Made by a program: the position numbers and the translations under genes. From Dysgonomonas gadei ATCC BAA-286 (GTDB taxonomy: Bacteria; Bacteroidota; Bacteroidia; Bacteroidales; Dysgonomonadaceae): a DNA stretch of 32,000 bases. Shown piece after piece: positions 15,989 through 31,934 of this stretch. Each line of letters begins with the position of its first letter. Position 1 is the stretch's first letter. The DNA lies in NCBI RefSeq assembly GCF_000213555.1, contig NZ_GL891988.1, positions 77,823-109,822 on the forward strand. Direction: 5' to 3'. The notes below the pieces were generated by a model. The model searched no databases, was not told where the DNA came from, and worked only from the letters and a program-made list of their open reading frames with translations.

Positions 15989-15996
15989 AGAATGCA

Positions 15997-16086: not shown

Positions 16087-16397
16087 TCAGCATGACAGGG
16101 TATAAGAGTCCTCAAAAGGCTAACGGCTAAAAGCTATCCGCTAATAGCTAATTCTGTTACTGATGACTGCTAACTGTTCACTGATTTCGTGTTACTTCTG
16201 TTACTTTTTAACCATATATGGTTAATATATGTAAAAATAATAGTATAAAAACAGTAAATAAAGTGTCAGATGTGTCAGGTTTTAACGCTATATAGTTAAT
16301 TAATGTAAAACTAATTAATAGTTATAACTATTGATTTTGTGCACTACCCTGATAGAACTAATGGCTTTGTAATACATTGTATAATCTCCTGTATATT

Positions 16398-17624
16398 ATG
16401 AAAGATAAGAGTCTTTTACATATTTGGTTTCAAAAACGGGGAAGTTATCTTGTCATATCCCTTTTTGCATTATTGTTTATGACAGGATGCTCTTCTGACG
16501 ATGATGATACTGTTCCTGTTGCGATTTCATACACGACATTGATTTATATGGCCGCAGATAATTCATTGGACAGTGATGTGGATTATACTATCGCGAAAAT
16601 AAAAGAAGGAGCTAAGAAAAGTGCAGGAACAGCAGTGATATATGTAGACAGGAAAGACGCTTCCCCACGGCTTTTCAAAGTCAATAGGGACGGGACAGAA
16701 ACCGTCCTGAAAAGCTATGAAGAAGAAAATTCCGCGGATGCTGAAACATTGGTACGTGTCATTCAGGAAACAAAGCAATTGGTGCCTTCCGAAACATTCG
16801 GGCTGGTAATCTGGTCGCATTCTATGGGCTGGTACCCTGCCACTTATATCGAAGAAGAGAGTAATGAAAATATCAGGTTGAAATATGTAGCCATCGATGA
16901 AAATCCCGATATACCGGAAAGCTCCATTTCTTTTATGGAAGTGGATGACATGGCAAAAGCATTGCCGGACAAAGTAGCCGAATATATCTGGTTCGATGTC
17001 TGCCTGATGGGGACAGTGGAGGGCTTGTATGAGTTTCGCAGTAAGGCGGATTACCTTGTGGCTTCACCGACAGAGGTATTGTTTGCAGCAGATTACGATG
17101 CCTCGGGTGTTCCTTATGCTAAGGTTCTGCCATTACTGTTTGGGGGTAAGAACGAATTGACGGATGCCTGTAAAATCTATTACAGGCATTATAACGAAAT
17201 GAAATATGAAATTCTTCGTTCGGCAAGCATTACGTTGATAGATGCCAAAGAGTTGGATGGGTTATACGCGGAAACAGAGAAAATTCTTTCGGGGAAATTA
17301 TTGGATATTGAAAATATGACAACCGAAGGTATTCAGACATATCATACTAAAAATATCCCGCAGATATTTTTCGATTTCGCAAACTTTATCAAAGTAAGCA
17401 GTACAACAGAGCAATACAGTTCATTCGAAAAACAGCTTTCCCGGGTTGTCCTTTATAAAGCGGCCACAGCTACTTTTATGGTCAGCGCGGATAATAAGTT
17501 TAGCATCGATCCGGCAAAATTTAGCGGGTTGAGTGTATATATCCCTTTGCTGAGGTGGAAAGGGACGAATGATTACCGGTATTATTTCTCACGGATGGAA
17601 TGGAGTGAAGTATATGGAGAATAA
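16398..17624 (+). CDS. Clostripain-related cysteine peptidase (family C11, clan CD), surface lipoprotein
   Basis: ATG at 16398 gives ...LFALLFMTGC|SSDDDDTV. C11 pattern LIYMAADNSLD. Catalytic-His context VIWSHSMGW (His codon 16818-16820) and catalytic-Cys context IWFDVCLMGTVEG (Cys codon 17001-17003). Confidence 0.8.
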   Translation: MKDKSLLHIWFQKRGSYLVISLFALLFMTGCSSDDDDTVPVAISYTTLIYMAADNSLDSDVDYTIAKIKEGAKKSAGTAVIYVDRKDASPRLFKVNRDGTETVLKSYEEENSADAETLVRVIQETKQLVPSETFGLVIWSHSMGWYPATYIEEESNENIRLKYVAIDENPDIPESSISFMEVDDMAKALPDKVAEYIWFDVCLMGTVEGLYEFRSKADYLVASPTEVLFAADYDASGVPYAKVLPLLFGGKNELTDACKIYYRHYNEMKYEILRSASITLIDAKELDGLYAETEKILSGKLLDIENMTTEGIQTYHTKNIPQIFFDFANFIKVSSTTEQYSSFEKQLSRVVLYKAATATFMVSADNKFSIDPAKFSGLSVYIPLLRWKGTNDYRYYFSRMEWSEVYGE

Positions 17625-17752: not shown

Positions 17753-18661
17753 TTATATTTCATTCTTTCTAAAGACTTTCGGAGTAGCCTGCTCACTCTT
17801 TTTAAAGAACTTAATAAAATGTGACGGATCTTCGAATCCCAGACAGAAAGCTATCTCATTGATCGTCCAGTTGGTATGTTTCAGCAAGGCTCTTGCTTCT
17901 AAGGCTATCCGCTCTGAGATTAATAGCTTTGTAGTTTTTCCTGTGACTTCTTTCAGTACCTTGTTCAGGTGATTGACATGGATATTTAGCTGCTGTGCAT
18001 AGTCACCGGGAGAATGAAGGCGAATACTTTGTATGGTCGACTCTATCGGAAACTGTCTTTCCAGTAGTTCGAGGAATAAAGATGTGATTCTGTCAGAGGC
18101 ATGAGATTCTTTATGTCCAACAGGCTGCATTATAGCAGGACGCATCTTTAATGCGGTGTGAATAAGTTCTGTAACCAGATTTCGAAGGACATCGTATTTA
18201 TAGACATAATCGGAATTAATCTCCGAAAACATCTTGTCATAAATTATACGTACCTGCCTGAATTCTTCATCATTCAGATCCAAGATAGGTATTCCATGAG
18301 GCTGAAACAAAGGATAGGCTTTAAAATCGCCATATCCTTTGAAAAAATCTTCCGTGAAAACACAAAATGCGCCTGTCTTATCCAGACTCAAAGGTTCCCA
18401 GTTATAGGGAACCTGAGGATTTGCAAACAACAGCATGTTATTTTCCACAACCAGCGTTTTGTCGGCATAATGAACGGTATTACTACCGGATATCAGGCTT
18501 ATTTTATAGTAATCCTTACGGCTGTATGGGATCGTATGATCCGGTTGTATATAATCATCCAGAGAAAAGACATTGAACTGGCCTATCTTTCCGATAATCT
18601 CACTAGGTAAGATCCCTAATTTAATGCGATAAAAATCTGCTAATGACAATGCCTTTTCCAT
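17753..18661 (-). CDS. AraC-family transcriptional regulator
   Basis: 302 aa. C-terminal double HTH (YAQQLNIHVNHLNKVLKEVTG...INEIAFCLGFEDPSHFIKFFKK). It lies 31 nt downstream of the SDR gene on the same strand. Confidence 0.85.
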   Translation of the reverse strand: MEKALSLADFYRIKLGILPSEIIGKIGQFNVFSLDDYIQPDHTIPYSRKDYYKISLISGSNTVHYADKTLVVENNMLLFANPQVPYNWEPLSLDKTGAFCVFTEDFFKGYGDFKAYPLFQPHGIPILDLNDEEFRQVRIIYDKMFSEINSDYVYKYDVLRNLVTELIHTALKMRPAIMQPVGHKESHASDRITSLFLELLERQFPIESTIQSIRLHSPGDYAQQLNIHVNHLNKVLKEVTGKTTKLLISERIALEARALLKHTNWTINEIAFCLGFEDPSHFIKFFKKSEQATPKVFRKNEI

Positions 18662-18692
18662 TATAATACAAGCTTAAATACTCTTTTCCTTT

Positions 18693-19457
18693 TTAAATAT
18701 TTTGTCCTCCTGAAACCTCAATCCGCTGGGCATTCACCCATCGTGCGTCATCAGTACATAAAAATGCAACTACTCCGCCAATATCCTCGGGCAAACCGAC
18801 TCTTCCTAATGGGATCGTACTGGCGGTTATTTTATTGACCTGTTCGTTATCTCTGACAATACCTCCGCCAAAATCAGTGGCTATAGCACCAGGAGCAACA
18901 GCGTTAGACCGAATACCTCTGGCTCCAAGTTCTTTTGCCTGATATCTTGTTAATACCTCAATAGCTCCTTTCATAGATGCATAAGCGGAATATCCGGGCC
19001 GGGAGAAACGTGCCAGACCTGTTGAGATATTGATGATACCACCTCCGTCTTCGAGTATGTTCAATGCTTTTTGGGTAAAGAAATAAACACCCTTGAAATG
19101 GATATTGAAAAGACTGTCGAAATCCTCTTCGGTTGTTTCGGCAAAAAGAGAATTAATTCCGATGCCTGCGTTATTTACCAGATAGTTTATTTTCTGAGTA
19201 CCAAATTTCACAGACAACTCCTGCTTAAGTAATTCGAAAAAAGAATCGAAGCTTTTTACATCGGCAGTATTGAGTTGGAGAGCAATGGCTTTTTGTCCGA
19301 GTTGCTCTATCTCTGCGATTGTTCCTAAAGCACTTTCCTTTTTGCTGTTGTAGGTAAGGACTACATCCAGCCCTTTACGGGCTATATTTAAAGCCATATT
19401 TTTACCTAGCCCACGGCTGCCGCCTGTTACTAATGCGATTTTTGATTGTTGTGACAT
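18693..19457 (-). CDS. SDR-family short-chain oxidoreductase
   Basis: 254 aa. Cofactor motif TGGSRGLGKNMA, NNAG, and catalytic YSAYASMKGA (YxxxK). Confidence 0.9.
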   Translation of the reverse strand: MSQQSKIALVTGGSRGLGKNMALNIARKGLDVVLTYNSKKESALGTIAEIEQLGQKAIALQLNTADVKSFDSFFELLKQELSVKFGTQKINYLVNNAGIGINSLFAETTEEDFDSLFNIHFKGVYFFTQKALNILEDGGGIINISTGLARFSRPGYSAYASMKGAIEVLTRYQAKELGARGIRSNAVAPGAIATDFGGGIVRDNEQVNKITASTIPLGRVGLPEDIGGVVAFLCTDDARWVNAQRIEVSGGQNI

Positions 19458-19481
19458 AATTCAATAGTTTTAATTACAACA

Positions 19482-19489
19482 CAAAGATA
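19482..19489 (-). promoter_or_regulatory. Candidate Bacteroidota -7 promoter box (TATCTTTG = TAnnTTTG) for the SDR-AraC unit
   Basis: The plus strand reads CAAAGATA. On the minus strand this is TATCTTTG, 25 nt upstream of the SDR ATG (19457). Confidence 0.3.
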
Positions 19490-19573
19490 CTGGTATATAG
19501 CTCATTGATACTGTATGATTCAATCCGCTTATGGTAAAAATCAAATAATTGGCTAGCTTCTCTTCGAAAGACT

Positions 19574-20038
19574 TTAGTTGTATATCAGAATATAAGCATT
19601 TAGATATGTTGCTAAAAACAGCCAAAGAATATAGGGAATAAATAAGATCCCACTCACTTTTTGCGCCGGATAACATTTAAAAGCATAATATAATACACCC
19701 AGATCCAACAAGATAATATTGATAAAACCTAAAAGAGGGTTTTGCAGATAAAAGAATGAAATGCTCCATGTAAAATTAAGGAACAACTGAACCGCAAATA
19801 ATGAGGTGAGAAATTTCTTGTTCCGTTCTTTTGAGTTCAATATCAGCCCAATAGAAATGCCCATACATAGGTATATTATACTCCAAGCAATAGGAAAAGC
19901 TATATTGGGCGGAGTTATTTCCGGTTTATTCAATGTCGGATACCATGTTTGTATAGATTCCGATTGAAAATAACTGGCTGTGAATCCGACTAAAAAACAA
20001 ATTATTACAGGAAGTAATATGTATAAAAATTTTCTCAT
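19574..20038 (-). CDS. tspO: TspO/MBR family tryptophan-rich sensory protein
   Basis: 154 aa with five hydrophobic helices. WYPTLNKPEITPPNIAFPIAWSIIYLCMGIS and a Trp-rich pattern are typical of TspO. Confidence 0.8.
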   Translation of the reverse strand: MRKFLYILLPVIICFLVGFTASYFQSESIQTWYPTLNKPEITPPNIAFPIAWSIIYLCMGISIGLILNSKERNKKFLTSLFAVQLFLNFTWSISFFYLQNPLLGFINIILLDLGVLYYAFKCYPAQKVSGILFIPYILWLFLATYLNAYILIYN

Positions 20039-20068
20039 ATGGATGAATGTTAGTTCTTGTTATCGCTG

Positions 20069-20500
20069 TTATGCTATGATCTCCCAATCCTCAATCCCTC
20101 CTTCTATTGTTTCAAATAAAGGATGCGGTTTTAACTCAGTCAATGCAGGTAGCTTTATAAAAAGTTCCGGGCTTCGTTTTTGAAGTTTTCGCCTCAGATG
20201 CTCATACTCATATTCCAATTGCCCTTTGGTTACAGGGATGGGAGAAATATACTCAATCATCCGGATCTTTTCTTTGCTATATGAAAAATTCCTTCTCATA
20301 GCTTCTTTGTATACTTCGGTAAGGAAAGCATCGATGTAGAGATTTGGATCAGGACTATTCTTAAAACGAATCAATTGAGGGTGATTCATATATCCCTTGG
20401 TCTTTCCTAAAAGCACATTCTTAGCCAATAACCCTTCACGCCACGAGGCATTAAGCCCTGCCGAGTCAAGATACTGAGGATGTAAAGACCATAACCGCAT
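20069..20500 (-). CDS. Pyrimidine dimer DNA glycosylase / endonuclease V family protein
   Basis: 143 aa. The N-terminus MRLWSLHPQYLDSAGLNASWREGLLAKNVLLGKTKGYMNHPQLIRF matches the conserved start of this family as I remember it. Confidence 0.7.
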   Translation of the reverse strand: MRLWSLHPQYLDSAGLNASWREGLLAKNVLLGKTKGYMNHPQLIRFKNSPDPNLYIDAFLTEVYKEAMRRNFSYSKEKIRMIEYISPIPVTKGQLEYEYEHLRRKLQKRSPELFIKLPALTELKPHPLFETIEGGIEDWEIIA

Positions 20501-20503
20501 GTA

Positions 20504-20983
20504 TTATTTTGCTAAGAGTTTTTCGATAGTCCCCGCAATCTTTGACGGATTAGTTATCGGAGCATATCGGTCAATGACATTTCCTTCTCTGTCGATCAGG
20601 AACTTAGTAAAGTTCCATTTTATAGAATCCCCTAGGATTCCTTTGCTATTTTGCTTCAGGTATTTATAAAGAGGATCTGCATTATCTCCGTTTACCTCAA
20701 TCTTGCCAAATGTGGTAAATGTAGTTTTATACTTCATTTCGCAGAAAGAGGTAATTTCATCATTGGTTCCGGGGGCCTGTTTTCCAAACTGATTGCACGG
20801 AAAATCCAATATTTCAAAGCCCTGATCCTTATATTTAAGATATAAATCCTGTAAATCCTTATACTGTGGGGTGAAGCCACATGCCGTAGCTGTATTAACA
20901 ATCAGCAGCACCTTTCCCTTATAGTTGGATAACGGGACATCATTGCCTTTGCTACTCTTTACGGTAAAATCATATATACTCAT
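20504..20983 (-). CDS. Glutathione peroxidase (Cys-type)
   Basis: 159 aa. [12 protein letters not shown] (Cys codon TGT, plus-strand ACA at 20879-20881), FPCNQFGKQ and [12 protein letters not shown]. Its stop codon lies 3 nt upstream of the start codon of the downstream glycosylase gene. Confidence 0.9.
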
Positions 20984-21086
20984 AATATACTTGTTTTACG
21001 ATATACAACAATCTCAAACGATTTTAGATTAGACGGTGGTAATTTTTATTGAAATATCCTTTACTCGCTTTATAAATAGACATTGA

Positions 21087-21449
21087 TTATTTCAATAGTA
21101 AGATGACAATTGCAATCAGAGCGGGCAAAGCCTGCTTGAAGAAGATTGATTTCTGAGCAGTGATAGCTCCATAAATTCCGGCAATAGCGACACAGCTAAG
21201 AAAGAATAATGCTATATTCTGGCTCCAGTCCGGACTGTCAATCAACAAAGACCAGATGAGTCCGGCTGCCAGAAATCCATTGTACAAACCTTGATTAGCA
21301 GCCAGTCCTTTGGTCTTCTCGAATAACTCATCCGGTATACTTTTGAATGTCTTACGTCCCTTTGTCGTCCATGCAAACATTTCAAGCCAAAGGATATAAA
21401 TATGCTCAAGAGCTACAAGCCCTATTAATATTTTAGATAATATTTCCAT
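21087..21449 (-). CDS. Small integral membrane protein, DUF1304-like
   Basis: 120 aa with four hydrophobic segments. The N-terminus LIGLVALEHIYILWLEMFAWTTKGRKTF resembles DUF1304 proteins. Confidence 0.6.
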   Translation of the reverse strand: MEILSKILIGLVALEHIYILWLEMFAWTTKGRKTFKSIPDELFEKTKGLAANQGLYNGFLAAGLIWSLLIDSPDWSQNIALFFLSCVAIAGIYGAITAQKSIFFKQALPALIAIVILLLK

Positions 21450-21741
21450 CTGCCTAACCTTTATAATAGTATTTACTGTACGAAGTTATATATTTAAAGA
21501 ATACAGTGTTTCCCCAAAAGATTTATTTTACAAGACGATTCTTACATTCTTTGTCTTTTTTCATTTCTTTTTTCTGATTTTTCTTTTCATTTTATGTTAA
21601 ATAGTAAAAATGCCATCGATCGAATAACTATAAATAATGAGATTCTATATTATAAATCGCAATTTCTAGGTATTTATATAGATAAAAGAAAGAACGAATT
21701 TTGCATTGTATTTTAATTTTTGTGAAAATAACAATAAAAAA

Positions 21742-24612
21742 ATGAATAAGATAAAGATTAAGAATATCCAAAATATTTGGATAAAATTAAACTCTCCATT
21801 CAAAATCATAGCTTCCATTCTCATCCTCTTTTTTTCTTGCATATCTTTTGCTAACGCTCAAAGTCCTAAATATAGTATTTCCGGAAAAATCCTTGAGGAA
21901 AGTGATCAAAAACAATTGGTAGGGATGGAATATGTAACGGTTTCTATTCCTGAATATGCGATGGGGACAGTAACTAATGAGGATGGATATTTTGCCATGC
22001 AAAATATTCCTTCCGGAAAAGTAAGATTTAAAGCCAAGTATGTAGGCATGCTTGAGATTGACACATTGCTTGAAGTCAATAAAGATATCTCATTATCATT
22101 TACATTGAAAAAAGAGAACTTCAGGCTATCGACAGTAGTTATTACAGCGACGAATAATAAGGCCGGACAATCTACGGCATCTTTCATATCCCGTAATGCG
22201 ATTGATCACCTCCAGGCAACTAACTTATCAGATATTGCATCATTACTGCCGGGAGGTCTAACATCTAATCCTAACCTGACGAATGCTAAGCAGATTAAAA
22301 TTAGAGAAGTCTCGGCCGATAACTTGGGAGTTTCAATGATGAATACTTTTGGTTTATCTATTATCAAAGATGGCTCACCTATCTCTAATAATGCTAATTT
22401 GCAGCTAATGAGTCCTTCTGTTGCCGGAGCAACAACAACTTTAGCGGGTGGTACTCCTCCAACCGGCGGAACAGATCTTCGGCTGATTTCTACTGATAAT
22501 ATAGAATCGGTAGAGATTATAAGAGGCATTCCTTCTGTACAATATGGGGACCTCACCTCTGGAGCTATTATTATAAACTCGAGAGCAGGTCAGCACCCTC
22601 TACGTGTCGCAGCCAAGACAAATTCAAATGTTTATCAGTTTTCAGCTGCATCAGGATTCAATCTGGGAGGTAATAAAGGTGCTTTAAATGTAAGTGGAGA
22701 TTATGCGCATAATACCAATGATCCTACAGAGTCATATAAAACTTACGAACGTAGTAATATTAAGGTTCTTTATTCTAACCGGTTTTTTGATCGGTTATCT
22801 ACAAATACATCGATTGATTTAGTTTATGGTGCTGATAGAAGAAGGCAGAATCCCGATGATGAAATAACCAAGCTGCATCAAAAAGGAGATAACATTGGCG
22901 GAACCCTTAATACGAATGGTATTTTACGGATCGCTACCCCGTGGTTGTCGAATATACGGTATGTTGCCTCTGCTTCTTATACATCCAAAAAGAGTTATAT
23001 GTCTCAATTGTATACAAATGCGACATCTCCCTATTCGATGACGACAAATGATGGAACTGTTTTATCCAACAGACCCGGAGTCGATATTTTTGACAATAAT
23101 GGTAATAAAATTACAAACTTCAGTGATGCAGATGCAAATTTATATGCAGTCCAACTGCCTGCTAGTTATGAAGGTAGATATGATATAGAAGGAAAAGAAG
23201 TGAATGTGTTTGCTAAACTGATGGGTACTCTGTTTAAGCGATTGGGAAATACAAACCATACTATTTTAGTCGGGGCTGATTTCAAAACTGACGGAAATGA
23301 AGGAGCTGGTAAAACTTTTAGCCAGACAGAACCTCCTTATAGAGATCTAAGTGCTCCAAACGCCTCTTTCCGACCAAGAAGCTATAAAGATATCCCCTAT
23401 GTTAAGCAATTGGGATTATTTGCCGAAGAAAATTTTAGATACAGCTTTGGAGACCACAAACTTCAGATAACCGGAGGGCTTAGATATGATAAAATATCGG
23501 TAGTAAAAGATGTTTTCTCTCCCCGGGTAAATGCTTCTTTCGAAATAATTCCTCAAAAACTCTCTATCCGGGGAGGGTATGGGGTAACGGCAAAAGCCCC
23601 GAGCACCCTGTTTCTATATCCCGAATTAGCATATTTTGAATATGTAAATATAGATGAGTTAAGCAACGAGGCTATCCCTGAAAGTGAAAGATTGTATATT
23701 ACAACTACGCGCGTATTCGATACGCAGAATAAAAACCTGAAAATAGCCAAAAGTAAAAAAGCTGAGGTAGGTTTTGACTTGAATATAAAGCAAGCTACCT
23801 TATCAGTAACCGGCTTCATTGACAGATTACAGGATGGTTACTCCATGTCTCCTACAATAAATAGTTTCAGGCCGGTCACCTATTATGCTTACCAAAGGAT
23901 TAATGACGAGATTGTACAAACAGAGGCCTTACCTGTTTTAGCAAAATATTATACACCGACTAATAATATACAATCTAAAGCTAAAGGAGTTGAATTTGAT
24001 CTCAACTTGGGACGTTTTGATGCTATCAGAACTGCATTTTCTATAAATGGGATGTGGATCAGGAATCAAAGTTATTCGAGCGATTATACCTTTTTTGATG
24101 GTAATAGCGGAACGGGTGAGAAAAACCGGACTCATATAGCATTGTATGAGAAAGGAATGGAAAAGAATAACTACCAGCGATTTACTACTACATTGAGAGC
24201 CACGCACAATATTCCTGAAATAGGTTTTGTTGTTACTCTGACAGCGCAGGCTATCTGGAACGAATCGCAATGGTACAATTACGGAAACGACTCTATTCCT
24301 GTAAAATATATATCGAAGAATGATGGATTAGTATATGATTTTGACCCGGGTAGGAAAGATGAAGCTGAATTTAAGCCATTAATCCGACAGGTTAATGATA
24401 AATACTATATCAGAGAGAATTATCCTCCTGCATATACATTTAATATAAATGTAACGAAGGAATTAGGCAATTATATGCGGGTTTCATTTTTTGCCAATAA
24501 TATGTTTCGAACTTATTATAAAATTAGATCTAACCGGGAACCTAGTACTTACAGGAATAGGAAACAACAGCAACAGTTCTTTTTTGGGATGGAACTATCT
24601 CTGACATTGTAA
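21742..24612 (+). CDS. TonB-dependent receptor (CarboxypepD_reg-like N-terminus, plug, barrel; no STN domain)
   Basis: ATG at 21742 (the ORF-track start at 21706 is TTG). Signal peptide SFANAQ. ISGKILEE...GYFAMQNIPSGKVRFKAKYVG. Plug region ATNLSDIASLLPGG...IESVEIIRGIPSVQYGDLTSGAIIINSR. Long beta-rich barrel. Confidence 0.85.
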   Translation: MNKIKIKNIQNIWIKLNSPFKIIASILILFFSCISFANAQSPKYSISGKILEESDQKQLVGMEYVTVSIPEYAMGTVTNEDGYFAMQNIPSGKVRFKAKYVGMLEIDTLLEVNKDISLSFTLKKENFRLSTVVITATNNKAGQSTASFISRNAIDHLQATNLSDIASLLPGGLTSNPNLTNAKQIKIREVSADNLGVSMMNTFGLSIIKDGSPISNNANLQLMSPSVAGATTTLAGGTPPTGGTDLRLISTDNIESVEIIRGIPSVQYGDLTSGAIIINSRAGQHPLRVAAKTNSNVYQFSAASGFNLGGNKGALNVSGDYAHNTNDPTESYKTYERSNIKVLYSNRFFDRLSTNTSIDLVYGADRRRQNPDDEITKLHQKGDNIGGTLNTNGILRIATPWLSNIRYVASASYTSKKSYMSQLYTNATSPYSMTTNDGTVLSNRPGVDIFDNNGNKITNFSDADANLYAVQLPASYEGRYDIEGKEVNVFAKLMGTLFKRLGNTNHTILVGADFKTDGNEGAGKTFSQTEPPYRDLSAPNASFRPRSYKDIPYVKQLGLFAEENFRYSFGDHKLQITGGLRYDKISVVKDVFSPRVNASFEIIPQKLSIRGGYGVTAKAPSTLFLYPELAYFEYVNIDELSNEAIPESERLYITTTRVFDTQNKNLKIAKSKKAEVGFDLNIKQATLSVTGFIDRLQDGYSMSPTINSFRPVTYYAYQRINDEIVQTEALPVLAKYYTPTNNIQSKAKGVEFDLNLGRFDAIRTAFSINGMWIRNQSYSSDYTFFDGNSGTGEKNRTHIALYEKGMEKNNYQRFTTTLRATHNIPEIGFVVTLTAQAIWNESQWYNYGNDSIPVKYISKNDGLVYDFDPGRKDEAEFKPLIRQVNDKYYIRENYPPAYTFNINVTKELGNYMRVSFFANNMFRTYYKIRSNREPSTYRNRKQQQQFFFGMELSLTL

Positions 24613-24638
24613 AAGTAATATAAACCAGTAATAAGAAA

Positions 24639-25889
24639 ATGAAAACAAAAAACATACTAGCATATATCCTGTTATTTAGCTCGCTCTTATTTATGGCTTG
24701 CAATTCTTTTGAAGAAGCATCCGATGCTGGGGAAGTTAGCGAAATAGATGTAAAAATTAGTGTACAGTCCTTAGTTCCCGGAGTAACTTCATACGAAGGT
24801 TTTACTATTACATTTAAAAATGTAAAATACGGTACTGTCTATACCTCCGAACTTAATGAAAGTTCAATAACGCAATTGAAAGTTATTCCGGGCATTTATC
24901 AGATTGACGTAAGCGGAGAGTTTATCGATGATTCTCATGATACTTATTTATTGAATGGAAATAAAGTAAACTTCCCGGTTGTTGAAGACGGAGCTACGAT
25001 AGATATAACTGTAAATGGATTGCGTAAGAATGATTTAATGTTTAAGGAAATATTCTATGCAGGTACTGCGAATTTTTATTTTAGGAATCAATTTTACGAA
25101 ATATATAACAACTCTGAAGATCAGATAATATATCTCGATGGAGTTCACTTTGCCAATTTAGCCCCGCTTACAGCTACAACAAAACTTCCCCTATGGCCGG
25201 AAGAAGATGGAGATAGATACGTGTATGCAGAACGTGTATGGAAATTTCCCGGAAATGGGACAGATTACCCTCTGGCACCGGGAGAATCGTGTGTTATTTC
25301 TCAGTTCGCTGCTAACCACCAATTACCTCAATATAATCCGAACTCCCCGATAAATGGATTTTCCTCTGAATTTGAGTTCAATATGGATAATGCTAATTAT
25401 CCGGATCAGCCAGCCATAGATATGACGCATGTATTCTATGACGGATTAGAGACAAAAGGAAGTTTACCTCAATATTTGACATCTGTCTTTGGAGGAGCAT
25501 ACGTTATTTTTAAACCTCTTGCGGGGGATGTTTACGACCCTGTAAATGATCTGTCTATGCGAACCAAGGATTTATCTGTCACGGCGACCAAATTGTATGC
25601 CAAAATTCCGATAACCTATGTTATAGATGCAGTAGAAGCAGGGCATAATGAGAGTATGCTTACAGCTAAACGTGTTCCGGCAGCGTTAGACAAAGGTATG
25701 ACATATGTTGGGGCTACGTATAATTCACAGGGAGTGGCTCGTAAAAAAATAGGAGAGCATAAAGATGGGACACCTATTTTGCAAGACCTCAATAATAGTA
25801 CAGAGGACTTTGATAGAGGAGTTGTCCCTGAATTCAGACGTTATGGATCAAAGATGCCAAGTTGGAATCATACGTTGTCCAATAAATAA
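24639..25889 (+). CDS. Surface lipoprotein with a lamin-tail-domain-like C-terminal half (possibly DUF4876 family)
   Basis: 416 aa. LLFMAC|NSFEEASDAGE (lipobox plus acidic tail). LTD-like FKEIFYAGTANFYFRNQFYEIYNNSEDQIIYLDGVHF. It starts 26 nt after the TBDT stop. Confidence 0.65.
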   Translation: MKTKNILAYILLFSSLLFMACNSFEEASDAGEVSEIDVKISVQSLVPGVTSYEGFTITFKNVKYGTVYTSELNESSITQLKVIPGIYQIDVSGEFIDDSHDTYLLNGNKVNFPVVEDGATIDITVNGLRKNDLMFKEIFYAGTANFYFRNQFYEIYNNSEDQIIYLDGVHFANLAPLTATTKLPLWPEEDGDRYVYAERVWKFPGNGTDYPLAPGESCVISQFAANHQLPQYNPNSPINGFSSEFEFNMDNANYPDQPAIDMTHVFYDGLETKGSLPQYLTSVFGGAYVIFKPLAGDVYDPVNDLSMRTKDLSVTATKLYAKIPITYVIDAVEAGHNESMLTAKRVPAALDKGMTYVGATYNSQGVARKKIGEHKDGTPILQDLNNSTEDFDRGVVPEFRRYGSKMPSWNHTLSNK

Positions 25890-25914
25890 AGATTGAAGAC
25901 TAAAAAAGAAAAAG

Positions 25915-27468
25915 ATGAAGAATATTAAACAACTTGTTTCGGCAATTATCCTATTTGTATTCTCAATGGTTGCGTATGGACAAGATAAAATAAACACTCC
26001 TGCTGCATTTGAAACATTCAAAGATAGAAGCCAATGGATGTACACAAATAATGCTGCCGGTTTGTTACTGGATAAACCGATAGATTACGCGGAGGTAAAA
26101 TTCTCATACGATTCTCATTCGGGTAGTTTCCATCGTCCACAAACAGGAGAGAAAATCAATGATCTCAAGTTTGATGTTGAAGGAGCTGTATTTGTGGGAA
26201 ATGTATATGCTTGGGGTAAGTTTAACTATACTCGTTCTAATATTAAAGATACCCAATTTAATGCTTCTATTATTGATCCGTACCGGGATATGCCATATAT
26301 GGTTGCAGATACCAATATGAGTAAGTGGAACAATCAGATCTACGATTTACAGTTCAAAGTGGTGACACCTAAAATATGGAATAAATTGTCCCTGGGGTTA
26401 GAAGGTAGCTACAATGCTGCTAGTGGAGCTAAGCAACGGGATATTCGCACCGAAAACTACTTCTATATATTACAGGTAAAACCGGGAATTGTATACTCTA
26501 TCAATAATAACCATCACATAGGTGCAAATTTTGATTTCCAAACATTAAAGGAAGAATCGAATATGTCCAATGTGAATGTCTATGTAGATCAGAACTACTA
26601 TGCTTTGTATGGATTGGGGACAGCTACCAGGGGACTGGGATCCGGGCGTACGACAAATTATGAAGGAAATGGTATTGGAGGAGGATTTCAGTATAATTAT
26701 CAGGGATTCTTCAATTTGCTATTTTCATCAAATTATAATTATAAAGTAGAGGATGTAAAAATATCATTTACATCGCCTGAAGAAAATGCAACAGTCAAGA
26801 GTAAAATATGGAGTGGTAAGTTGCAATTGAATAAACGGCTCAATAAAACCACTCACTATTTAACCCTGAATTATGCAGATAAGAAAATAGACGGAATTGA
26901 AGCTATAACACAATATGATAATACAGAGAATCAGAGTGGATATGTAACTATATATAAAGATATACGCTCAAAGTATAAGTTTCAACAAGCATCACTCGAT
27001 TATGATTTTACAATTGACAGAGACTTGGAATATAATTGGAAATTCGGAATTGGAGTGAAATATACAAACAAAGAAGATGTCTATCTTACTCCGCGATCTG
27101 AAAAAAATGCCGAAAATCTTATTGCTCAATTCAGAATAAAAAAGAATTTTATTCTTTCAGATGATGTATTAAAGAGAAGAGTGTTATTGGGAGCCGACTA
27201 TAGTTATAATAACAATCTGTCGGGAGGATACAGTTACAATGGCAGCCATCCTGAATATATAGTTGTTACCCAATTTGAACAGACTGATACAGATTATCTT
27301 AATTCCAACTTTTATTCCTTGGGCGCAAATCTAACATATTCTCAAAAGATAAAAAAAGATATACTGGCCAATCTGTTTGCTAAGGCTGAGTTTAGATATA
27401 CGAAAGCTACTTCTTATGAGTTTGGTAATCGAAATCGATTACAAATATCAATAGGATGTAATTTCTAA
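25915..27468 (+). CDS. Outer-membrane beta-barrel protein of unknown function (possibly DUF6850 family)
   Basis: 517 aa. Signal peptide MVAYGQ. Alternating aromatic/polar strand pattern rich in Y/N/G. C-terminal ISIGCNF (terminal Phe). Confidence 0.65.
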   Translation: MKNIKQLVSAIILFVFSMVAYGQDKINTPAAFETFKDRSQWMYTNNAAGLLLDKPIDYAEVKFSYDSHSGSFHRPQTGEKINDLKFDVEGAVFVGNVYAWGKFNYTRSNIKDTQFNASIIDPYRDMPYMVADTNMSKWNNQIYDLQFKVVTPKIWNKLSLGLEGSYNAASGAKQRDIRTENYFYILQVKPGIVYSINNNHHIGANFDFQTLKEESNMSNVNVYVDQNYYALYGLGTATRGLGSGRTTNYEGNGIGGGFQYNYQGFFNLLFSSNYNYKVEDVKISFTSPEENATVKSKIWSGKLQLNKRLNKTTHYLTLNYADKKIDGIEAITQYDNTENQSGYVTIYKDIRSKYKFQQASLDYDFTIDRDLEYNWKFGIGVKYTNKEDVYLTPRSEKNAENLIAQFRIKKNFILSDDVLKRRVLLGADYSYNNNLSGGYSYNGSHPEYIVVTQFEQTDTDYLNSNFYSLGANLTYSQKIKKDILANLFAKAEFRYTKATSYEFGNRNRLQISIGCNF

Positions 27469-27477
27469 ATAATTCAG

Positions 27478-27511
27478 TAAAGGAAATGAAGAAATCACTT
27501 CATTTCCTTTA
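27478..27511 (+). terminator. Strong intra-operon hairpin (attenuator, partial terminator or RNA-stability element)
   Basis: Perfect 14-bp stem TAAAGGAAATGAAG (27478-27491) / CTTCATTTCCTTTA (27498-27511) with a 6-nt loop. It sits in the 78-nt gap after the barrel gene. There is only a weak T-run afterwards. Confidence 0.5.
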
Positions 27512-27546
27512 CTTCATTTATAAAGATCAAAAAAACTAAAATAGAG

Positions 27547-29751
27547 ATGAAAAAAACTTATTTGTTATTGGCCATTAGTTTGCTATTATCCAGCATAGTA
27601 TGCGGGCAAAGCATTGTGAAGCCATCAATTAATACGAAGACAACTTTTGCAATAATAATTGATAGTAAAAGCTATGCAGAAGCTAAAAAAGAAGTAGACG
27701 AATATAAGAAGATCATCGAGAATGATGGATTAGGTACATATATAATATCTCATACATGGACCAAGCCTGATGAGATACGCGAGATATTAATCAAACTATA
27801 TAATGATAAAGAAGCACCACTGGAGGGTACTGTTCTCGTTGGGGATATTCCAATTCCGATGCTACGCGATGCCCAGCATTTAACCTCAGCATTCAAAATG
27901 GACCAGAAACGAAACTGGCAACAGTCAAGCGTGCCTTCTGACAGGTTTTACGATGATTTTGGTTTAAAATTCGATTATCTAAAACAAGACTCGATAAAAT
28001 CTTTATACTTTTATTACTCACTTCGGCCAGACTCGGAACAAGTCCTTTCTTCTAATATTTATTCAGCACGAATAAGACCTCTTGAAAACGGTAAAACGGA
28101 TAAATACAGCCAGCTGCGAGCCTATCTGCAAAAAGTAGTAGATATACGTTCTTCTGAAAAAAGTAATATTATCGATAATCTGACTGTAGCACGAGGACAT
28201 GGATACAACTCAGAGTCGAGAGTAGCATGGTCGGGAGAACAACTTGCGTTAAAGGAGCAATTTCCTAATTTATTTGCTGCAAATAATTTTGTGAAATTTA
28301 TGGAGTTCGATTCTTATTGGCCAATGAAAGCTTATTGGCTGAACGAGGTCCAACGCCCTGATTTGGATGTAATGCTATTCCATCATCATGGATCGAATGA
28401 TTATCAGTATATAAACGGATATAAAGAGGGAAGCGATGTAAATACATCTAAAGAAAACATAAAGCTGTATCTACGAAGTAAAATCTCCGGTGCTGTAAAA
28501 AAAGGAAAGGATAAAGAAGAGACAATTGAGTATTATATGAAATCGTTAGATGTTCCCAGGTCTTGGTGCGAGGAGGCATTTGATCCGGCCATACTTGCCC
28601 AGGACTCCATATTGAATGATTCTCTGGATATTCTGGTAAGGGACATTTACACAATAACACCTAATGCGCGTTTTGTGATGTTTGATGCCTGCTACAACGG
28701 GTCGTTCTATGAAGATGAATACATTGCCGGCGCATATTTATTTAATAGTGGTAAAACCATCGTTACACAAGGAAATACAGTTAATACTATTCAGGATAAA
28801 TGGCCTGATGAATTTTTGGGCTTACTAAACAGTGGTATTCGCATCGGATTATGGGGGAAATATGTCCATTTTCTTGAAACGCATATCATCGGAGATCCAA
28901 CGTATCATTTTGCGAAGAATCTGAATTCGAATATCAATATTAATGAAGCGCTTACAATTCATAAGAATGATATCGCATACTGGAAGGAAGCATTATCGGA
29001 AGCAGATGCAGATATAAAAACAATAGCGCTACGTGTACTTTTTGATAACGATTATAAAAACATCTCAGATCTGTTGAAACAGACCTATTTCCAATCTCAG
29101 GATATGGTTATAAGACTTGAAGCCTTACAGTTATTGTCGAGAATGGATAATGATGATTTCATTGAGGTTTTAGCTGCAGCCATGTCAGACAGCTACGAAC
29201 TAACCCGCCGCTATGCAGCAGAATATATTGTAAAGAACGGATCGGAAAAGCTAATTTCATCTCTTGCGAAGGCTATATTGAACGATAATACCTCAAAACG
29301 TATAAACTTTAAAATCTCATCGGGGCTAAGAATGGTCAATCTCGAGAAACTGAAAGCAGAATTAGAATTACAAGCTGCAGGAAGACCATTTTACAGCAGT
29401 GATATGCTGGACAAAACGCTGAAAGAGATAGAATCTGTTCAGAAAAGTAAGGATAGTAGCCTTTCATTGATTACCAACACGGAGGAAAAGGCGAAGAACA
29501 GAATATTTGATATAACAAGATTCCGTAACCAGCCCGCATCGGATGGTATAGATACGTTATTGTCAATTGCTGCTGATACTGCGAACGAAAAGGCAATCCG
29601 TTCTGTAACGATAGAAGCGCTGGGATGGTTCAACTATTCATATAGAAAAGGATATCTTATTGAAAAGTTAAACGAAATTTTGTCTATTGAAAAAGACAGC
29701 GATTTAATCAATGAAACAACTAAAAGTATAAACAGACTAAAATCTAAATAA
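27547..29751 (+). CDS. Secreted protein: gingipain/C25-like (clan CD caspase-fold-like) N-terminal region fused to C-terminal HEAT repeats
   Basis: 734 aa with a signal peptide. C25 N-subdomain-like FAIIIDSKSY...GTVLVGDIPIP. His motifs RGHGYNSESRVAW (28198-28200) and LFHHHGS (28381-28395). Cys motif VMFDACYNGSFY (28690-28692). HEAT-like helices from about 28960 to the end. Confidence 0.6.
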   Translation: MKKTYLLLAISLLLSSIVCGQSIVKPSINTKTTFAIIIDSKSYAEAKKEVDEYKKIIENDGLGTYIISHTWTKPDEIREILIKLYNDKEAPLEGTVLVGDIPIPMLRDAQHLTSAFKMDQKRNWQQSSVPSDRFYDDFGLKFDYLKQDSIKSLYFYYSLRPDSEQVLSSNIYSARIRPLENGKTDKYSQLRAYLQKVVDIRSSEKSNIIDNLTVARGHGYNSESRVAWSGEQLALKEQFPNLFAANNFVKFMEFDSYWPMKAYWLNEVQRPDLDVMLFHHHGSNDYQYINGYKEGSDVNTSKENIKLYLRSKISGAVKKGKDKEETIEYYMKSLDVPRSWCEEAFDPAILAQDSILNDSLDILVRDIYTITPNARFVMFDACYNGSFYEDEYIAGAYLFNSGKTIVTQGNTVNTIQDKWPDEFLGLLNSGIRIGLWGKYVHFLETHIIGDPTYHFAKNLNSNININEALTIHKNDIAYWKEALSEADADIKTIALRVLFDNDYKNISDLLKQTYFQSQDMVIRLEALQLLSRMDNDDFIEVLAAAMSDSYELTRRYAAEYIVKNGSEKLISSLAKAILNDNTSKRINFKISSGLRMVNLEKLKAELELQAAGRPFYSSDMLDKTLKEIESVQKSKDSSLSLITNTEEKAKNRIFDITRFRNQPASDGIDTLLSIAADTANEKAIRSVTIEALGWFNYSYRKGYLIEKLNEILSIEKDSDLINETTKSINRLKSK

Positions 29752-29753
29752 AA

Positions 29754-30611
29754 ATGAAATATATCACAATATCTTTATTGACATTGCTTATTGTCATATT
29801 TGTAGGATGTAGTTCACAAAGAGTAAAGCCATCTGCAAATATAGTTTTCGATTCTTACGAGCAACATTTTATAGATTCAGTCTTACAGATTGGTCTTGAC
29901 AATGAGGCTTTGTTTACATTGTTAGGAGATCTAAAGCCAATGAGCTCGTTAGTTACATTCAATTATCCGATAGCGAATAATGATAGTACAAAGGTTTCAA
30001 GTTCTAAAATATTGGACAGATCTATTCATGGGAAATATCTGGATCGGTTGTACGCGATTGTGAAAGCTATAAACAAATCGAGCATTCCTGATCTTCAATT
30101 AGTGCTTATTCCATATCAAACCCCTCAAAAGAAAAACAGAATCTTACAATTAAGTGTTGTTAGAAAAAGTTCGCTGGACAGCTTATTGAAAGCTAAAGAA
30201 GAATTTTTTGGCCAGTTTGGATTAGTACCGGGGACCGATCCTAATGTAGTTGTCAGTACAATTGAATGTAGTGATAAATTTGAGAGGTGGAGAGGATACG
30301 GCTATCTTTTTGGCTATCCCGATTATGCTGTAGACTTCTTTATTAATGCATTTTTGGAAACTGAATCCACTGGTAAATTTGTGGAAAGAAACGCATTCAG
30401 AATACCTACATATTCTATGCCCGAAATGGGGAATTTTGTCTATACTTATCCCAAAGAACACACTCCTACAGCAGAAGTAGATTCGGCTATTTACTATAAA
30501 GGTGTGCATATTCTGGATAATTATAGGACATTGCGTAATAAATATATGAATGCAGACAGCACTGTACAATCTTACAAATTACTTCAGGATTTTTATAGAT
30601 CATCAAAATAA
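29754..30611 (+). CDS. Hypothetical lipoprotein (non-acidic post-Cys region, likely periplasm-facing)
   Basis: 285 aa. LIVIFVGC|SSQRVKPS. It starts 2 nt after the upstream stop. No family recognised. A conserved-looking patch is RWRGYGYLFGYPDYAVDFF. Confidence 0.6.
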   Translation: MKYITISLLTLLIVIFVGCSSQRVKPSANIVFDSYEQHFIDSVLQIGLDNEALFTLLGDLKPMSSLVTFNYPIANNDSTKVSSSKILDRSIHGKYLDRLYAIVKAINKSSIPDLQLVLIPYQTPQKKNRILQLSVVRKSSLDSLLKAKEEFFGQFGLVPGTDPNVVVSTIECSDKFERWRGYGYLFGYPDYAVDFFINAFLETESTGKFVERNAFRIPTYSMPEMGNFVYTYPKEHTPTAEVDSAIYYKGVHILDNYRTLRNKYMNADSTVQSYKLLQDFYRSSK

Positions 30612-30629
30612 ATAGAAGTTTGATTTTTG

Positions 30630-31934
30630 ATGAGCAAAGAAAAGATAACTAAGATCAGTGCTTATACTGGCATATCGATTGTTGTTGCGAATATGATTGG
30701 AACCGGGGCTTTCACAAGTCTCGGGTTTCAACTCGAAAGTATCACAAATACAGCCTCAATTATTACCCTATGGATACTTGGCGGCATATTGGCATTATGT
30801 GGAGCATTTAGCTATGCCGAGGTTGGAACTTTCTTTAAGAAATCGGGAGGTGAGTATACCTTTCTTTCCGGAATATATCATCCCGTAATAGGATATTTGT
30901 CCGGGTGGATATCGTTAACTGTAGGTTTTGCTGCTCCCATAGCATTGTCAGCTTTAGCTTTTACTGAATATTTTCCTGTCAAAACCGGGTATCCCCAAAT
31001 AATCTGTATTGCTCTCATTGCAATAATAACATTAATACATAGTCGTAATCTGAATTCAAGTTCTAAGTTTCAGAATATAACTACTTTTTTTAAAGTATTC
31101 TTAATTCTGGTTATTATACTGGTAGGAGTAATAGTCCCAACCGAACCTAATAATGCAATTAGTTTTGAATCGTCATATGTGAATGAAATTACATCAGCGA
31201 CATTTGCTGTTTCATTTATATATGTTACTTATTCTTATTCAGGGTGGAATGCTGCTGCATATATAACTGAAGAATTTAAAACCCCTCAAAGATCTCTACC
31301 TATTGCATTGATTGGAGGAACTTTAATTGTTACAATCTTATATACGTTGCTACAGATTACTTTCCTTAGTCATGTGCCCTTATCAGAATTAGTGGGGAAA
31401 TTGAATATTGGAACCATTACCAGTGAATATATGCTAGGACCCGGATTTGCGAAAATATTCAGCACCGGAATTTCACTTTTGCTTATTTCCGGTATTAGTG
31501 CTATGGTATGGGTTGGCCCCAGAGTTACAGCAAGTATATCTGAAAGACATCATCTATGGCGGTATTTTAAAAATAACTCAAAAGGAATTCCTGTAAAAGC
31601 GCTATGGTTGCAGTTCACTATTAGTTCTATATTAATTATTACCGGAACATTTAATCAAATAATGATTTATTGCGGTATATTGCTCACCTTCTCTTCTTTA
31701 TTGGTTATTGTGGGAGTGTTTATCTTAAGATATCGGAATAGAGGGAAGGTTATAGAAGGCTATAAGAGTCCATTTTTCCCTTTTTTTCAAATTATATTTG
31801 CAATAGTGGCTATCTGGATGATTGTATTCGCTTTCCTTAATAACACTTATGAGAGCTTAGCCGGATTAATAAATGTTATATTGGGATTGGCAACTTATTT
31901 TATTAAACCTAAGAAATGCCCGAATAAAATATAA
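30630..31934 (+). CDS. APC-superfamily amino acid permease
   Basis: ATG at 30630 (the TTG at 30627 is in frame). About 12 TM helices. N-terminal signature SIVVANMIGTGAFTSLGF and YAEVGTFFKKSGGEYTF. It starts 18 nt after the upstream lipoprotein gene. Confidence 0.85.
   Translation: MSKEKITKISAYTGISIVVANMIGTGAFTSLGFQLESITNTASIITLWILGGILALCGAFSYAEVGTFFKKSGGEYTFLSGIYHPVIGYLSGWISLTVGFAAPIALSALAFTEYFPVKTGYPQIICIALIAIITLIHSRNLNSSSKFQNITTFFKVFLILVIILVGVIVPTEPNNAISFESSYVNEITSATFAVSFIYVTYSYSGWNAAAYITEEFKTPQRSLPIALIGGTLIVTILYTLLQITFLSHVPLSELVGKLNIGTITSEYMLGPGFAKIFSTGISLLLISGISAMVWVGPRVTASISERHHLWRYFKNNSKGIPVKALWLQFTISSILIITGTFNQIMIYCGILLTFSSLLVIVGVFILRYRNRGKVIEGYKSPFFPFFQIIFAIVAIWMIVFAFLNNTYESLAGLINVILGLATYFIKPKKCPNKI

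Follow-up and report, generated by a model that had tools for sequence, protein, structure and literature searches.

A SusD-less TonB-dependent uptake operon

The window considered here is a stretch of 32,000 nucleotides of contig NZ_GL891988.1 of Dysgonomonas gadei ATCC BAA-286, in which six consecutive genes on the same strand form one operon (Table 1). The genes encode a TonB-dependent transporter (TBDT; g1, protein T), a DUF4876 lipoprotein (g2, L), a DUF6850 outer-membrane beta-barrel (g3, B), a secreted protein that combines a C25-like domain with HEAT repeats (g4, H), a lipoprotein of a small unannotated family (g5) and a permease of the APC superfamily (g6). With slightly less than even confidence we read this unit as a metal-starvation uptake operon, in which a T-L-B-H module has been joined to a lineage-restricted inner-membrane step formed by g5 and the APC permease. 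The reading draws on what is shown here, namely the gene content of the unit, its synteny and modularity, the signal types of its proteins and their invariant residues, and on published work concerning the lid model, the surface exposure of a Bacteroides fragilis homolog of BT1938 and the iron/haem regulation of related loci.

The intergenic gaps from g1 to g6 amounted to 26, 25, 78, 2 and 18 nt, and two public contigs carry identical calls for all six genes. Coordinates and spacing were exactly those of the original prediction, a short description of the same DNA that had been made before any database search and that had proposed an envelope-spanning, TonB-dependent uptake cluster devoid of SusD. 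This proposal is supported by our analysis, and, as had also been claimed, no SusD, glycoside hydrolase or sigma/anti-sigma gene was present within positions 21742-31934. The permease gene g6 closes the unit, since the next gene downstream (FimA-like) is encoded on the opposite strand. The region upstream is bounded by the start of g1 and a divergent minus-strand gene that ends at 21449. An Rfam scan of the whole window gave no riboswitch or leader RNA family, and an exact copy of the Bacteroidetes -7 motif (TAnnTTTG) was found neither upstream of g1 nor in any of the junctions, which is uninformative. The best classical Fur-box match upstream of g1 reached 13/19.

Table 1. Features of the operon, of related loci and of the remainder of the window. 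Positions are those of the window, unless preceded by the number of a locus in another genome (L).
Feature	Position	Strand	Description
Upstream region	21450-21741	+	AT-rich, 292 nt, presumed promoter/leader
g1 (T)	21742-24612	+	TonB-dependent transporter, 956 aa, signal peptide
g2 (L)	24639-25889	+	DUF4876 lipoprotein, expected at the surface, putative lid of T
g3 (B)	25915-27468	+	DUF6850 outer-membrane beta-barrel, type-I signal peptide, C-terminal Phe
Stem-loop	27476-27513	+	perfect 16-bp stem in the g3-g4 gap (terminator-like scan)
g4 (H)	27547-29751	+	secreted, 734 aa, probable C25-like domain and HEAT repeats
g5	29754-30611	+	lipoprotein predicted to face the periplasm, small unannotated family
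g6	30630-31934	+	inner-membrane APC-superfamily permease (LAT-like), final operon gene
ECF sigma factor	7609-8238	-	separate TonB locus
FecR anti-sigma	8456-9541		separate TonB locus
SusC-like TBDT, 1060 aa	9719-12901		separate TonB locus
Two ORFs, no Pfam match	13192-14538, 14597-15679		separate TonB locus
C11 clostripain-like cysteine peptidase	16377-17624		separate TonB locus
Secreted protein of ~206 aa	L071:12227-12862		between H and T
Secreted protein of ~206 aa	L076:12203-12814		between H and T
Secreted protein of ~206 aa	L078:12194-12808		between H and T
Secreted protein of ~206 aa	L079:9124-9744		between H and T
Secreted protein of ~206 aa	L082:9358-9987		between H and T

Conservation and modularity

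An alignment of 36 g4 homologs was run against 185,579 representative species genomes, and 80 loci were taken from the at least 588 matches obtained. The six window proteins were mapped onto these loci using tblastn and all open reading frames (ORFs) were clustered. In 70 of the 80 H-anchored loci, spread over around 20 genera, H was accompanied by T, L and B together. Eight of the ten remaining loci are cut by contig ends; at L081, T and L were recovered by tblastn and an ORF for B by clustering, and only L028 has complete flanks that lack T-L-B. The T-L-B-H arrangement is far beyond chance. Its order is near-universal, with median junctions of 14 (T-L), 21 (L-B) and 40 nt (B-H), and the medians of the last two junctions (H-g5 and g5-APC) are 10 and 18 nt. 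The conservation of gene order anticipated by the original prediction was thus borne out for the core, but not for the six-gene unit as a fixed system.

The copy number of H is variable, being 1, 2 or 3 per H-anchored locus. A T-L-B-H-H-H organization is, for the most part, typical of Bacteroides, Phocaeicola, Prevotella, Alistipes, Odoribacter and Butyricimonas, and the lone H of the window is of the distal (third) paralog type. We found g5 in 11 of the 80 loci (~14%), in nine of them together with APC, and no permease at all in the loci of gut Bacteroides, Prevotella and Alistipes. The g5-APC pair also occurs next to T-L-B of the window type (48-54% identity) where H is missing, as in Sphingobacterium L083, Limibacterium L088 and Odoribacteraceae L090. 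When g5 itself was used as anchor, it adjoined a TBDT module in five of the six contexts; in the sixth (L086/L087), which runs into a contig end, no APC gene follows g5 and a weak B-like match lies upstream. Finally, loci L005-L010 (Limibacterium, Proteiniphilum and Dysgonomonas termitidis) share 54-67% identity with the window in H, g5 and APC, but no more than 22-32% in T, L and B, which implies that receptor and downstream parts were recombined between two T-L-B subtypes. T-L-B-H is therefore the conserved core, and g5-APC an optional, tightly coupled add-on.

Two minor observations concern the surroundings of H. The lone H homolog of L028 (L028:5762-13271; 50% identical to g4) resides in a metagenome-assembled genome (MAG) of the Rikenellaceae, where it is flanked by ilvD-like, acetolactate-synthase-like and ketol-acid reductoisomerase genes and has no T-L-B within 10 kb; a second locus of this MAG (L013) shows the normal T-L-B-H arrangement. 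The loci of Chitinophaga, Pedobacter and Sphingobacterium in which H precedes T-L-B encode, between H and T, a secreted protein of around 206 amino acids lacking a Pfam match (Table 1), and this is another unannotated, lineage-specific component.

The transporter and its lipoprotein

Within g1, Pfam recovered a CarbopepD_reg_2 domain (E 1e-12) and a Plug domain (E 5e-10, aa 144-274) only, in line with the earlier description of the protein as a TonB receptor that lacks an STN domain. A TonB-box-like STVVITA sequence is found at the start of the Plug match. The Pfam model TonB_dep_Rec_b-barrel did not match; the part of g1 behind the plug measures around 680 residues, a length also seen in relatives. 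The sole NCBIfam match at E<=0.01 was a weak one to TonB-siderophor (TIGR01783; 31 bits, aa 145-589), with none to the SusC-type model (TIGR04056) at this threshold, and no PDB sequence relative was obtained at E<1e-3. The identity to the T proteins of most related loci is 47-63%. We also inspected g1 by eye for the FRAP and NPNL motifs of haem receptors, but NPNL was present in the plug region only and was judged coincidental.

The lipoprotein g2 belongs to DUF4876 (E 1e-47) and is a close relative of PDB entry 4Q1Z, a 'putative lipoprotein' from structural genomics (E 1.8e-141, ~60% identity by eye). Directly behind its lipobox Cys21 comes the sequence NSFEEAS, and the L family as a whole has the motif C-[DNST]-S-F-x-[DE], which agrees with the acidic stretch behind the Cys that had been described. 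The lamin-tail-like (LTD) domain assigned to g2 in the same description could not be recovered, as neither LTD nor any other Pfam model matched residues 21-214, even at E<=5; the resemblance to LTD is at the level of motifs only (FYEIYNNS...LDG). Both family guesses, DUF4876 for g2 and DUF6850 for g3, were on the other hand correct by Pfam search.

DUF4876 proteins have been proposed to act as lids of non-SusC TBDTs, on the basis of AlphaFold-Multimer contacts for Bacteroides pairs that are predictions only (bioRxiv 10.1101/2023.03.17.533168). In the same work BT1939 of Bacteroides thetaiotaomicron is treated as a TBDT and classed as non-SusC, and as further evidence for the lid its proximity to BT1938 was found to be kept in 81 genera and a B. 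fragilis homolog of BT1938 was reported to be surface-exposed (bioRxiv 10.1101/2023.03.17.533168). Given the acidic export motif behind the Cys and this published surface exposure, L is expected to reside at the cell surface. The N-terminus of L at the Bacteroides xylanisolvens locus L063, MKKYLIYLFTLASTLLIGCDSFRD, is identical to the corrected N-terminus of BT1938 (bioRxiv 10.1101/2023.03.17.533168), and the T-L-B-H-H-H locus of Bacteroides therefore corresponds to BT1939-BT1934. The original prediction had regarded the four middle genes as functionally uncharacterized; this still applies, although for L a lid proposal has been published and a homolog has been solved.

The DUF6850 barrel and the junction with H

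The g3 protein matches DUF6850 (PF21012) with E 1.6e-120, the match spanning all 464 positions of the profile. Its last residues are GCNF, in keeping with its earlier description as a second barrel with a signal peptide and a terminal Phe. No PDB relative was found using the single sequence or a profile. B adjoins L in at least 70 loci, and neither DUF6850 nor BT1934-BT1937 is mentioned in the literature that was searched.

Within the core, B and H are spaced more widely than any other pair of adjacent genes. In the window the whole g3-g4 gap of 78 nt (27469-27546), including the stem listed in Table 1, has a fold energy of -21.4 kcal/mol, and a T-rich tail comes after the stem. The B-H junction of around 13 other loci likewise holds a strong hairpin, though its sequence is unrelated (e.g. 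L004, L013, L032, L039, L053, L056 and L060). The hairpin in the window is possibly an attenuator or an mRNA-stabilizing element, and the recurrence of such hairpins suggests a conserved need to set the expression of T-L-B and that of H apart.

The H protein

The C-terminal 260 residues of g4 (around aa 470-734) constitute a HEAT solenoid, which was recognized by Pfam (HEAT_2, E 5e-11, aa 509-583), in PDB profile matches to alphaRep proteins (down to E 1e-8) and by Foldseek, which gave a probability of 1.0 to alphaRep, DOHH, YibA and CpcE/F. The preceding part, around aa 25-470, forms an alpha/beta domain that is C25-like, as set out below. The H family comprises at least 2739 clusters, all of around 730 amino acids, and conservation is higher in the N-terminal 450 residues than in the rest of the protein. 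In an alignment of 128 homologs, paralogs included, His281, Gly282 and Cys382 are invariant (128/128) and Ala381 nearly so; the other invariant residues are Asp39, Arg133, Asp136, Gln416, Asp417, Glu444 and Gly449-Asp450-Pro451.

In the AlphaFold2 (AF2) model of g4 (pLDDT 87) His281 follows the strand formed by residues 275-279 and Cys382 the strand formed by residues 376-379, within the order beta-alpha-beta-alpha-beta(His)-alpha-beta(Cys)-alpha-beta-alpha-beta. Such an order is the connectivity of the caspase/gingipain fold (clan CD). The two residues are separated by an insert of around 100 residues, which is mostly helical. The commonest weak Pfam match among 40 aligned N-terminal domains was Peptidase_C25 (4 of the 40; best E 1e-4), and the one match that was located spans the Cys segment, with 20.8 bits against a cut-off of 23. 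When compared by hhalign with a C11 (clostripain) profile, which was built from the C11 gene of the window itself, the FDAC sequence of H was aligned with the catalytic FDVC (probability 19%, E 1.2e-3, 26 columns). On sequence and model we consider it probable, though unproven, that the N-terminal domain is C25-like, and a peptidase activity is predicted only. The caspase-fold-like/HEAT fusion of the original prediction is thereby confirmed with respect to the HEAT repeats, and weakly supported, at sub-threshold level, with respect to clan CD. HEAT proteins dominated the Foldseek matches of the full g4 model. A likeness to Raptor, which likewise combines caspase-like and HEAT parts (probability 0.33-0.38), was dismissed, as the GABA-B receptor and ATP-citrate lyase aligned over equal lengths at low probability.

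A type-I signal peptide was found at 120 of the 128 H N-termini, and the eight lipobox-like variants carry Lys/Asn-rich rather than acidic residues behind the Cys. Considering the predominance of type-I signals and the missing acidic residues in the lipidated variants, H is most likely periplasmic.

The g5 lipoprotein and the APC permease

No Pfam or NCBIfam match was obtained for g5, nor a PDB sequence relative or a PDB fold match at E<0.05 for its AF2 model (pLDDT 90). The family is small: in a set of 1.84 billion proteins it accounts for only 325 clusters when these are formed at 50% identity. Cys19 is invariant, and an acidic residue behind it is absent from 12 of the 13 g5 sequences; in the window the Cys is followed by SSQRVKP, as expected for the non-acidic lipoprotein that had been described. 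The missing acidic export signal predicts that g5 faces the periplasm.

The permease g6, which had been called as an APC permease before, matches AA_permease_2 (E 8e-50) and AA_permease (E 1e-25) of Pfam over its full length. Its best NCBIfam model is TIGR00911 (L-type amino acid transporter, LAT) with 166 bits against a cut-off of 702 bits. No NCBIfam equivalog cut-off was reached that would define a substrate of g6. The g5 and APC genes are adjacent or overlapping in related loci, sometimes with overlapping stop and start codons, and this strict pairing with a LAT-like permease suggests that g5 is an extracytoplasmic accessory or substrate-delivery subunit of the latter.

Some distant relatives of g5 (P0453, P0482, P0491, P0469 and P0443) are long proteins in which a g5-like domain is fused to an erythromycin-esterase-family, PDZ or DUF5829 domain. 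The rare fusions found among distant relatives (erythromycin-esterase-like, DUF5829, HAD phosphatase and methyltransferase) were discarded as a functional clue, as they gave no coherent hint.

Connections to metal starvation

Expression data have been reported for relatives of the module. The BT1933-39 genes of B. thetaiotaomicron, annotated as a transposase, hypotheticals, a HEAT-repeat protein, DUF4876 and a TBDT, go up 3.5-7.4-fold in 150 uM dipyridyl, and PG1019-22 of Porphyromonas gingivalis 20-214-fold in dipyridyl (PMC10434189). The DUF4876 gene of the latter organism shows a log fold change (LFC) of -5.4 in excess haemin (PMC10470040), and PG1019/1020, which were called an uncharacterised transport system, are upregulated when a hemH mutant is kept without haem (PMC13096392).

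The neighboring genes of the core in other genomes connect to metals as well. An ECF sigma factor and FecR are encoded next to a core with a longer T (~1025 aa) in eight loci. Regulators of the Fur family adjoin the core in three lineages (L084/85, L025 and L057), their metal specificity not being settled by PDB matches. In three Bacteroides/Phocaeicola loci the genes of a Peripla_BP_2/FecCD/ABC_tran importer immediately precede the core, on its strand, and a CobW/COG0523 gene occupies that position relative to T in five others, namely L047, L048, L050 and L066 of Segatella/Prevotella and L088 of Limibacterium. The Segatella gene at L066:1230-2432 encodes a His/Asp/Glu-rich tract of around 35 residues that is typical of zinc-linked COG0523 proteins, and in Limibacterium fermenti two COG0523 copies are present (L088:2099-4282). 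The core of Sphingobacterium L083 is adjoined by a ZIP permease and a DUF4625 gene, and a second TBDT with two DUF4625 lids is encoded nearby in L084. In Sunxiuqinia L075 the g5-APC pair is followed by an ABC ATPase and DUF4857 pair, like in the strongly iron-induced BT3625-33 locus. This coupling of the core to FecBCD-type, Fur-family, ECF sigma/FecR, COG0523 and ZIP genes points to a metal-linked cargo. We conclude that the module is a transition-metal starvation system, for which iron/haem is favored by the expression data and zinc is also possible.

Proposed mechanism and alternatives

From the above we infer a periplasmic site and a proteolytic role for H, a metal-linked cargo and roles for B and for g5-APC, which could be combined as follows. 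L would sit on the outer face of T and capture a scarce, metal-associated substrate, which would be driven through T into the periplasm by TonB energy. There H, with a HEAT solenoid for substrate binding and a C25-like Cys/His site, may bind the cargo and then cleave or unload it, while B would be a second outer-membrane part of the machine and could serve as a channel or as an anchor. Movement of an amino-acid-like product over the inner membrane would fall to g5 and the APC permease in Dysgonomonas and certain other lineages; elsewhere this step may be taken by FecBCD-type or DUF4857-type ABC systems, or by nothing that is encoded nearby. Expression of the operon would be expected in iron, and possibly zinc, starvation. 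A more far-reaching version, which we consider unlikely but worth stating, holds that T-L-B-H is a widespread and hitherto unrecognized 'metal piracy' machine of the Bacteroidota: a lidded T would take up a protein, peptide or peptidic chelate that carries a metal, one to three copies of a periplasmic H, as members of a new family of gingipain-like Cys/His enzymes fused to a HEAT solenoid, would cleave it and so free the metal, DUF6850 would be a new class of barrel, and in some lineages g5 and APC would salvage the organic remnant as a bacterial two-component, LAT-like amino-acid transporter. Such a machine would be a functional counterpart of the Fus system of Pectobacterium, made of unrelated parts.

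Several findings weigh against the metal-starvation operon that we favor. With respect to H, the clan-CD assignment is sub-threshold: the N-terminal half of the window protein has no Pfam match, a PDB profile search with a 40-sequence alignment gave nothing usable, the comparison with C11 reached a probability of only 19%, and for that half Foldseek returned generic two-domain matches only (Raptor and the GABA-B receptor). The invariant Cys/His pair could, moreover, bind a metal instead of being catalytic. With respect to the cargo, none of the invariant residues of L is a His, Cys or Met, as might be expected in a direct binder of haem or zinc, and B. thetaiotaomicron mutants in BT1939/BT1938 were without a fitness phenotype in 519 conditions (bioRxiv 10.1101/2023.03.17.533168). 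Metal-type neighbors are found in a minority of the loci, and those of the iron type (FecBCD and FecR) and of the zinc type (COG0523 and ZIP) are mixed. The expression data all come from relatives; dipyridyl is not specific for iron, the induction of BT1933-39 is modest, and the P. gingivalis locus, likened to ours by DUF4876 and TBDT, may represent another DUF4876 subtype. The classical Fur-box scores upstream of 34 T genes were the same as those of 297 control intergenic regions, and in the lack of any enrichment the Fur box was dropped as evidence for regulation. Finally, transcription of the six genes could be divided in two at the g3-g4 hairpin.

The nature of the cargo is where two alternatives deviate from our reading. 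The original prediction envisaged a nutritional route for a peptide, protein or amine conjugate, in which H is a protease, the APC permease takes up an amino acid and metal is not involved. A C25-like Cys/His domain in H, an APC/LAT-like permease and the tight linkage of g5-APC to T-L-B (five of the six g5-anchored contexts) would all fit such a route, as would the report that one TBDT with a lid of a different family appears to import lysine (bioRxiv 10.1101/2023.03.17.533168). The amino-acid or amine cargo has nevertheless turned out to be a weak proposition, for it hinges on the accessory g5-APC part, with g5 in only 11 and APC in nine of the 80 H-anchored loci and no permease in the gut Bacteroides, Prevotella and Alistipes loci. 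The relatives respond to iron/haem limitation, a response to amino-acid limitation not having been reported, and the neighbors are Fur-family, FecR, FecBCD, COG0523 and ZIP genes rather than genes for peptidases or amino-acid catabolism, so that we regard this route as quite unlikely. The acquisition of zinc, or of a zincophore, under control of Zur stays closer to our reading and would explain the effect of dipyridyl by chelation of zinc; the iron depletion in PMC10434189 was indeed brought about by 150 uM of this compound. It is in agreement with the COG0523/CobW genes upstream of T on the same strand, one of which is His-rich and two of which occur together in L088, with the ZIP permease and DUF4625 gene of Sphingobacterium L083, and with adjacent Fur-family regulators whose metal specificity is not settled. 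The P. gingivalis DUF4876 locus, however, answers to the haemin level itself, the FecBCD/Peripla_BP_2, FecR-type and DUF4857 ABC neighbors are of an iron/haem/siderophore type, and no zinc-limitation data for Bacteroides came up in the literature search. A dedicated zinc system therefore seems unlikely to us.

The other two alternatives concern the relation between B and H. The barrel PorV retains the C25-like sortase PorU at the cell surface, and the genes of Slam barrels adjoin those of TBDT/lipoprotein pairs. By analogy B and H could, instead of handling cargo, constitute a surface-assembly pair in the manner of PorV-PorU or Slam-TbpB, with B as a barrel that anchors or translocates H or L and H as a sortase-like transpeptidase by which surface proteins of the system are processed or attached, and the adjacency of B and H in most loci and the C25-like character of H would suit such a function. 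It is hard to reconcile, though, with 0 to 3 copies of H per single B, with lipidated H variants that miss the acidic export signal and with HEAT repeats where a T9SS C-terminal domain should be. Furthermore, since T-L-B occurs without H (L083, L088 and L090), the export and lid function of L cannot need H, and we hold this alternative to be highly improbable. Two adjacent but independent transcription units, T-L-B ending at the 27476-27513 hairpin and then H-g5-APC, would be in keeping with a perfect 16-bp hairpin and T-rich tail in the widest gap, with the differing histories of H/g5/APC and T/L/B in L005-L010 (54-67% versus 22-32% identity) and with the occurrence of each sub-module without the other. 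Yet the adjacency and strand of B and H are kept in around 62 loci, often with a gap below 45 nt and no hairpin, the g3-g4 gap has no promoter consensus, H is almost never found away from T-L-B (L028 being the sole exception), and hairpins inside operons commonly tune stoichiometry instead of separating functions. Two separate units are thus improbable, and a single metal-starvation operon is the interpretation we retain.

Relation to known systems

The closest known system, BT1939-BT1934 of B. thetaiotaomicron, shares the T-L-B-H order with the window, and L of the BT1938 type shares the lipoprotein export motif with g2. At the orthologous locus of B. xylanisolvens (L063), T is around 54% and L around 55% identical to the window proteins. 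The Bacteroides locus has three H genes and no g5-APC, whereas the window has one H together with g5-APC. The preprint on BT1939-34 covers the T-L pair only, and no discussion of B and H was found in the literature searched. At PG1019-PG1022 and BT3625-33 a DUF4876 lipoprotein is likewise encoded beside a TBDT and induced by iron/haem starvation (PMC10434189, PMC10470040, PMC13096392); unlike the window, BT3625-33 encodes DUF4876 twice, together with PepSY proteins and an ABC system, and shows no DUF6850 or HEAT annotation.

In functional terms the module may be compared with the Fus system of Pectobacterium (FusA TBDT and FusC), where a TBDT imports ferredoxin and a periplasmic protease frees the iron (PMC5095587, PMC6071955, PMC7593965). 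The proposed logic, in which a macromolecule carrying a metal is imported by way of TonB and then proteolysed in the periplasm to free the metal, would be the same by analogy, but there is no sequence relationship, FusC being an M16 metalloprotease as opposed to the C25-like Cys/His and HEAT parts of H, and Fus lacks a lipoprotein lid and a second barrel. SusCD/RagAB resemble the window in that a TBDT with a CarbopepD_reg-type N-terminal domain has a surface lipoprotein encoded just downstream; the window differs in having no SusD/RagB family protein and no glycoside hydrolase. In the gingipains and PorU (C25, clan CD) His-Gly and Ala-Cys follow consecutive beta strands, as they do in the model of H, which on its part stays below the Pfam gathering threshold for C25, has the insert of around 100 residues and is fused to HEAT repeats in place of a T9SS domain. 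The eukaryotic heteromeric amino-acid transporters consist of a LAT light chain and an ancillary heavy chain, a composition of which that of g6 and g5 is reminiscent. The best family model of g6 is L-type and g5 is an obligatory-looking extracytoplasmic partner, but g5 has no detectable similarity to 4F2hc or rBAT and the score of g6 is far below the LAT cut-off.

New in the present case is the variant with a single H and g5-APC of a functionally unsolved system, of which the T-L pair and the regulation by iron/haem had been published. At least 588 loci of the 185,579 genomes carry the core module, among them loci of Bacteroides, Phocaeicola, Prevotella, Segatella and Alistipes, which are dominant in the human gut and mouth, and its relatives belong to an iron/haem-starvation stimulon that is relevant to nutritional immunity and inflammation. 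DUF6850, the C25-like/HEAT protein, in functional terms DUF4876, and g5 have no assigned role, and the literature searched offered nothing on B, H or g5. The identity of the cargo would fill a gap in our view of metal acquisition by Bacteroidota without siderophore synthesis, and the system could reveal a new family of periplasmic cysteine peptidases, a new class of outer-membrane barrels and an accessory lipoprotein of APC permeases.

Other features of the window

A separate TonB-receptor locus is found at positions 7609-17624 (Table 1). This cluster is sigma/anti-sigma-controlled and ends in a clan CD peptidase; it is possibly directed at proteins or peptides. Between this locus and the operon, on the minus strand (17753-21449), lies a stress-like cluster with genes for an AraC-family regulator, a short-chain dehydrogenase, TspO/MBR, Pyr_excise, glutathione peroxidase and DUF1304. 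TspO/MBR is a tetrapyrrole-binding family; the cluster is not kept beside the module in other genomes.

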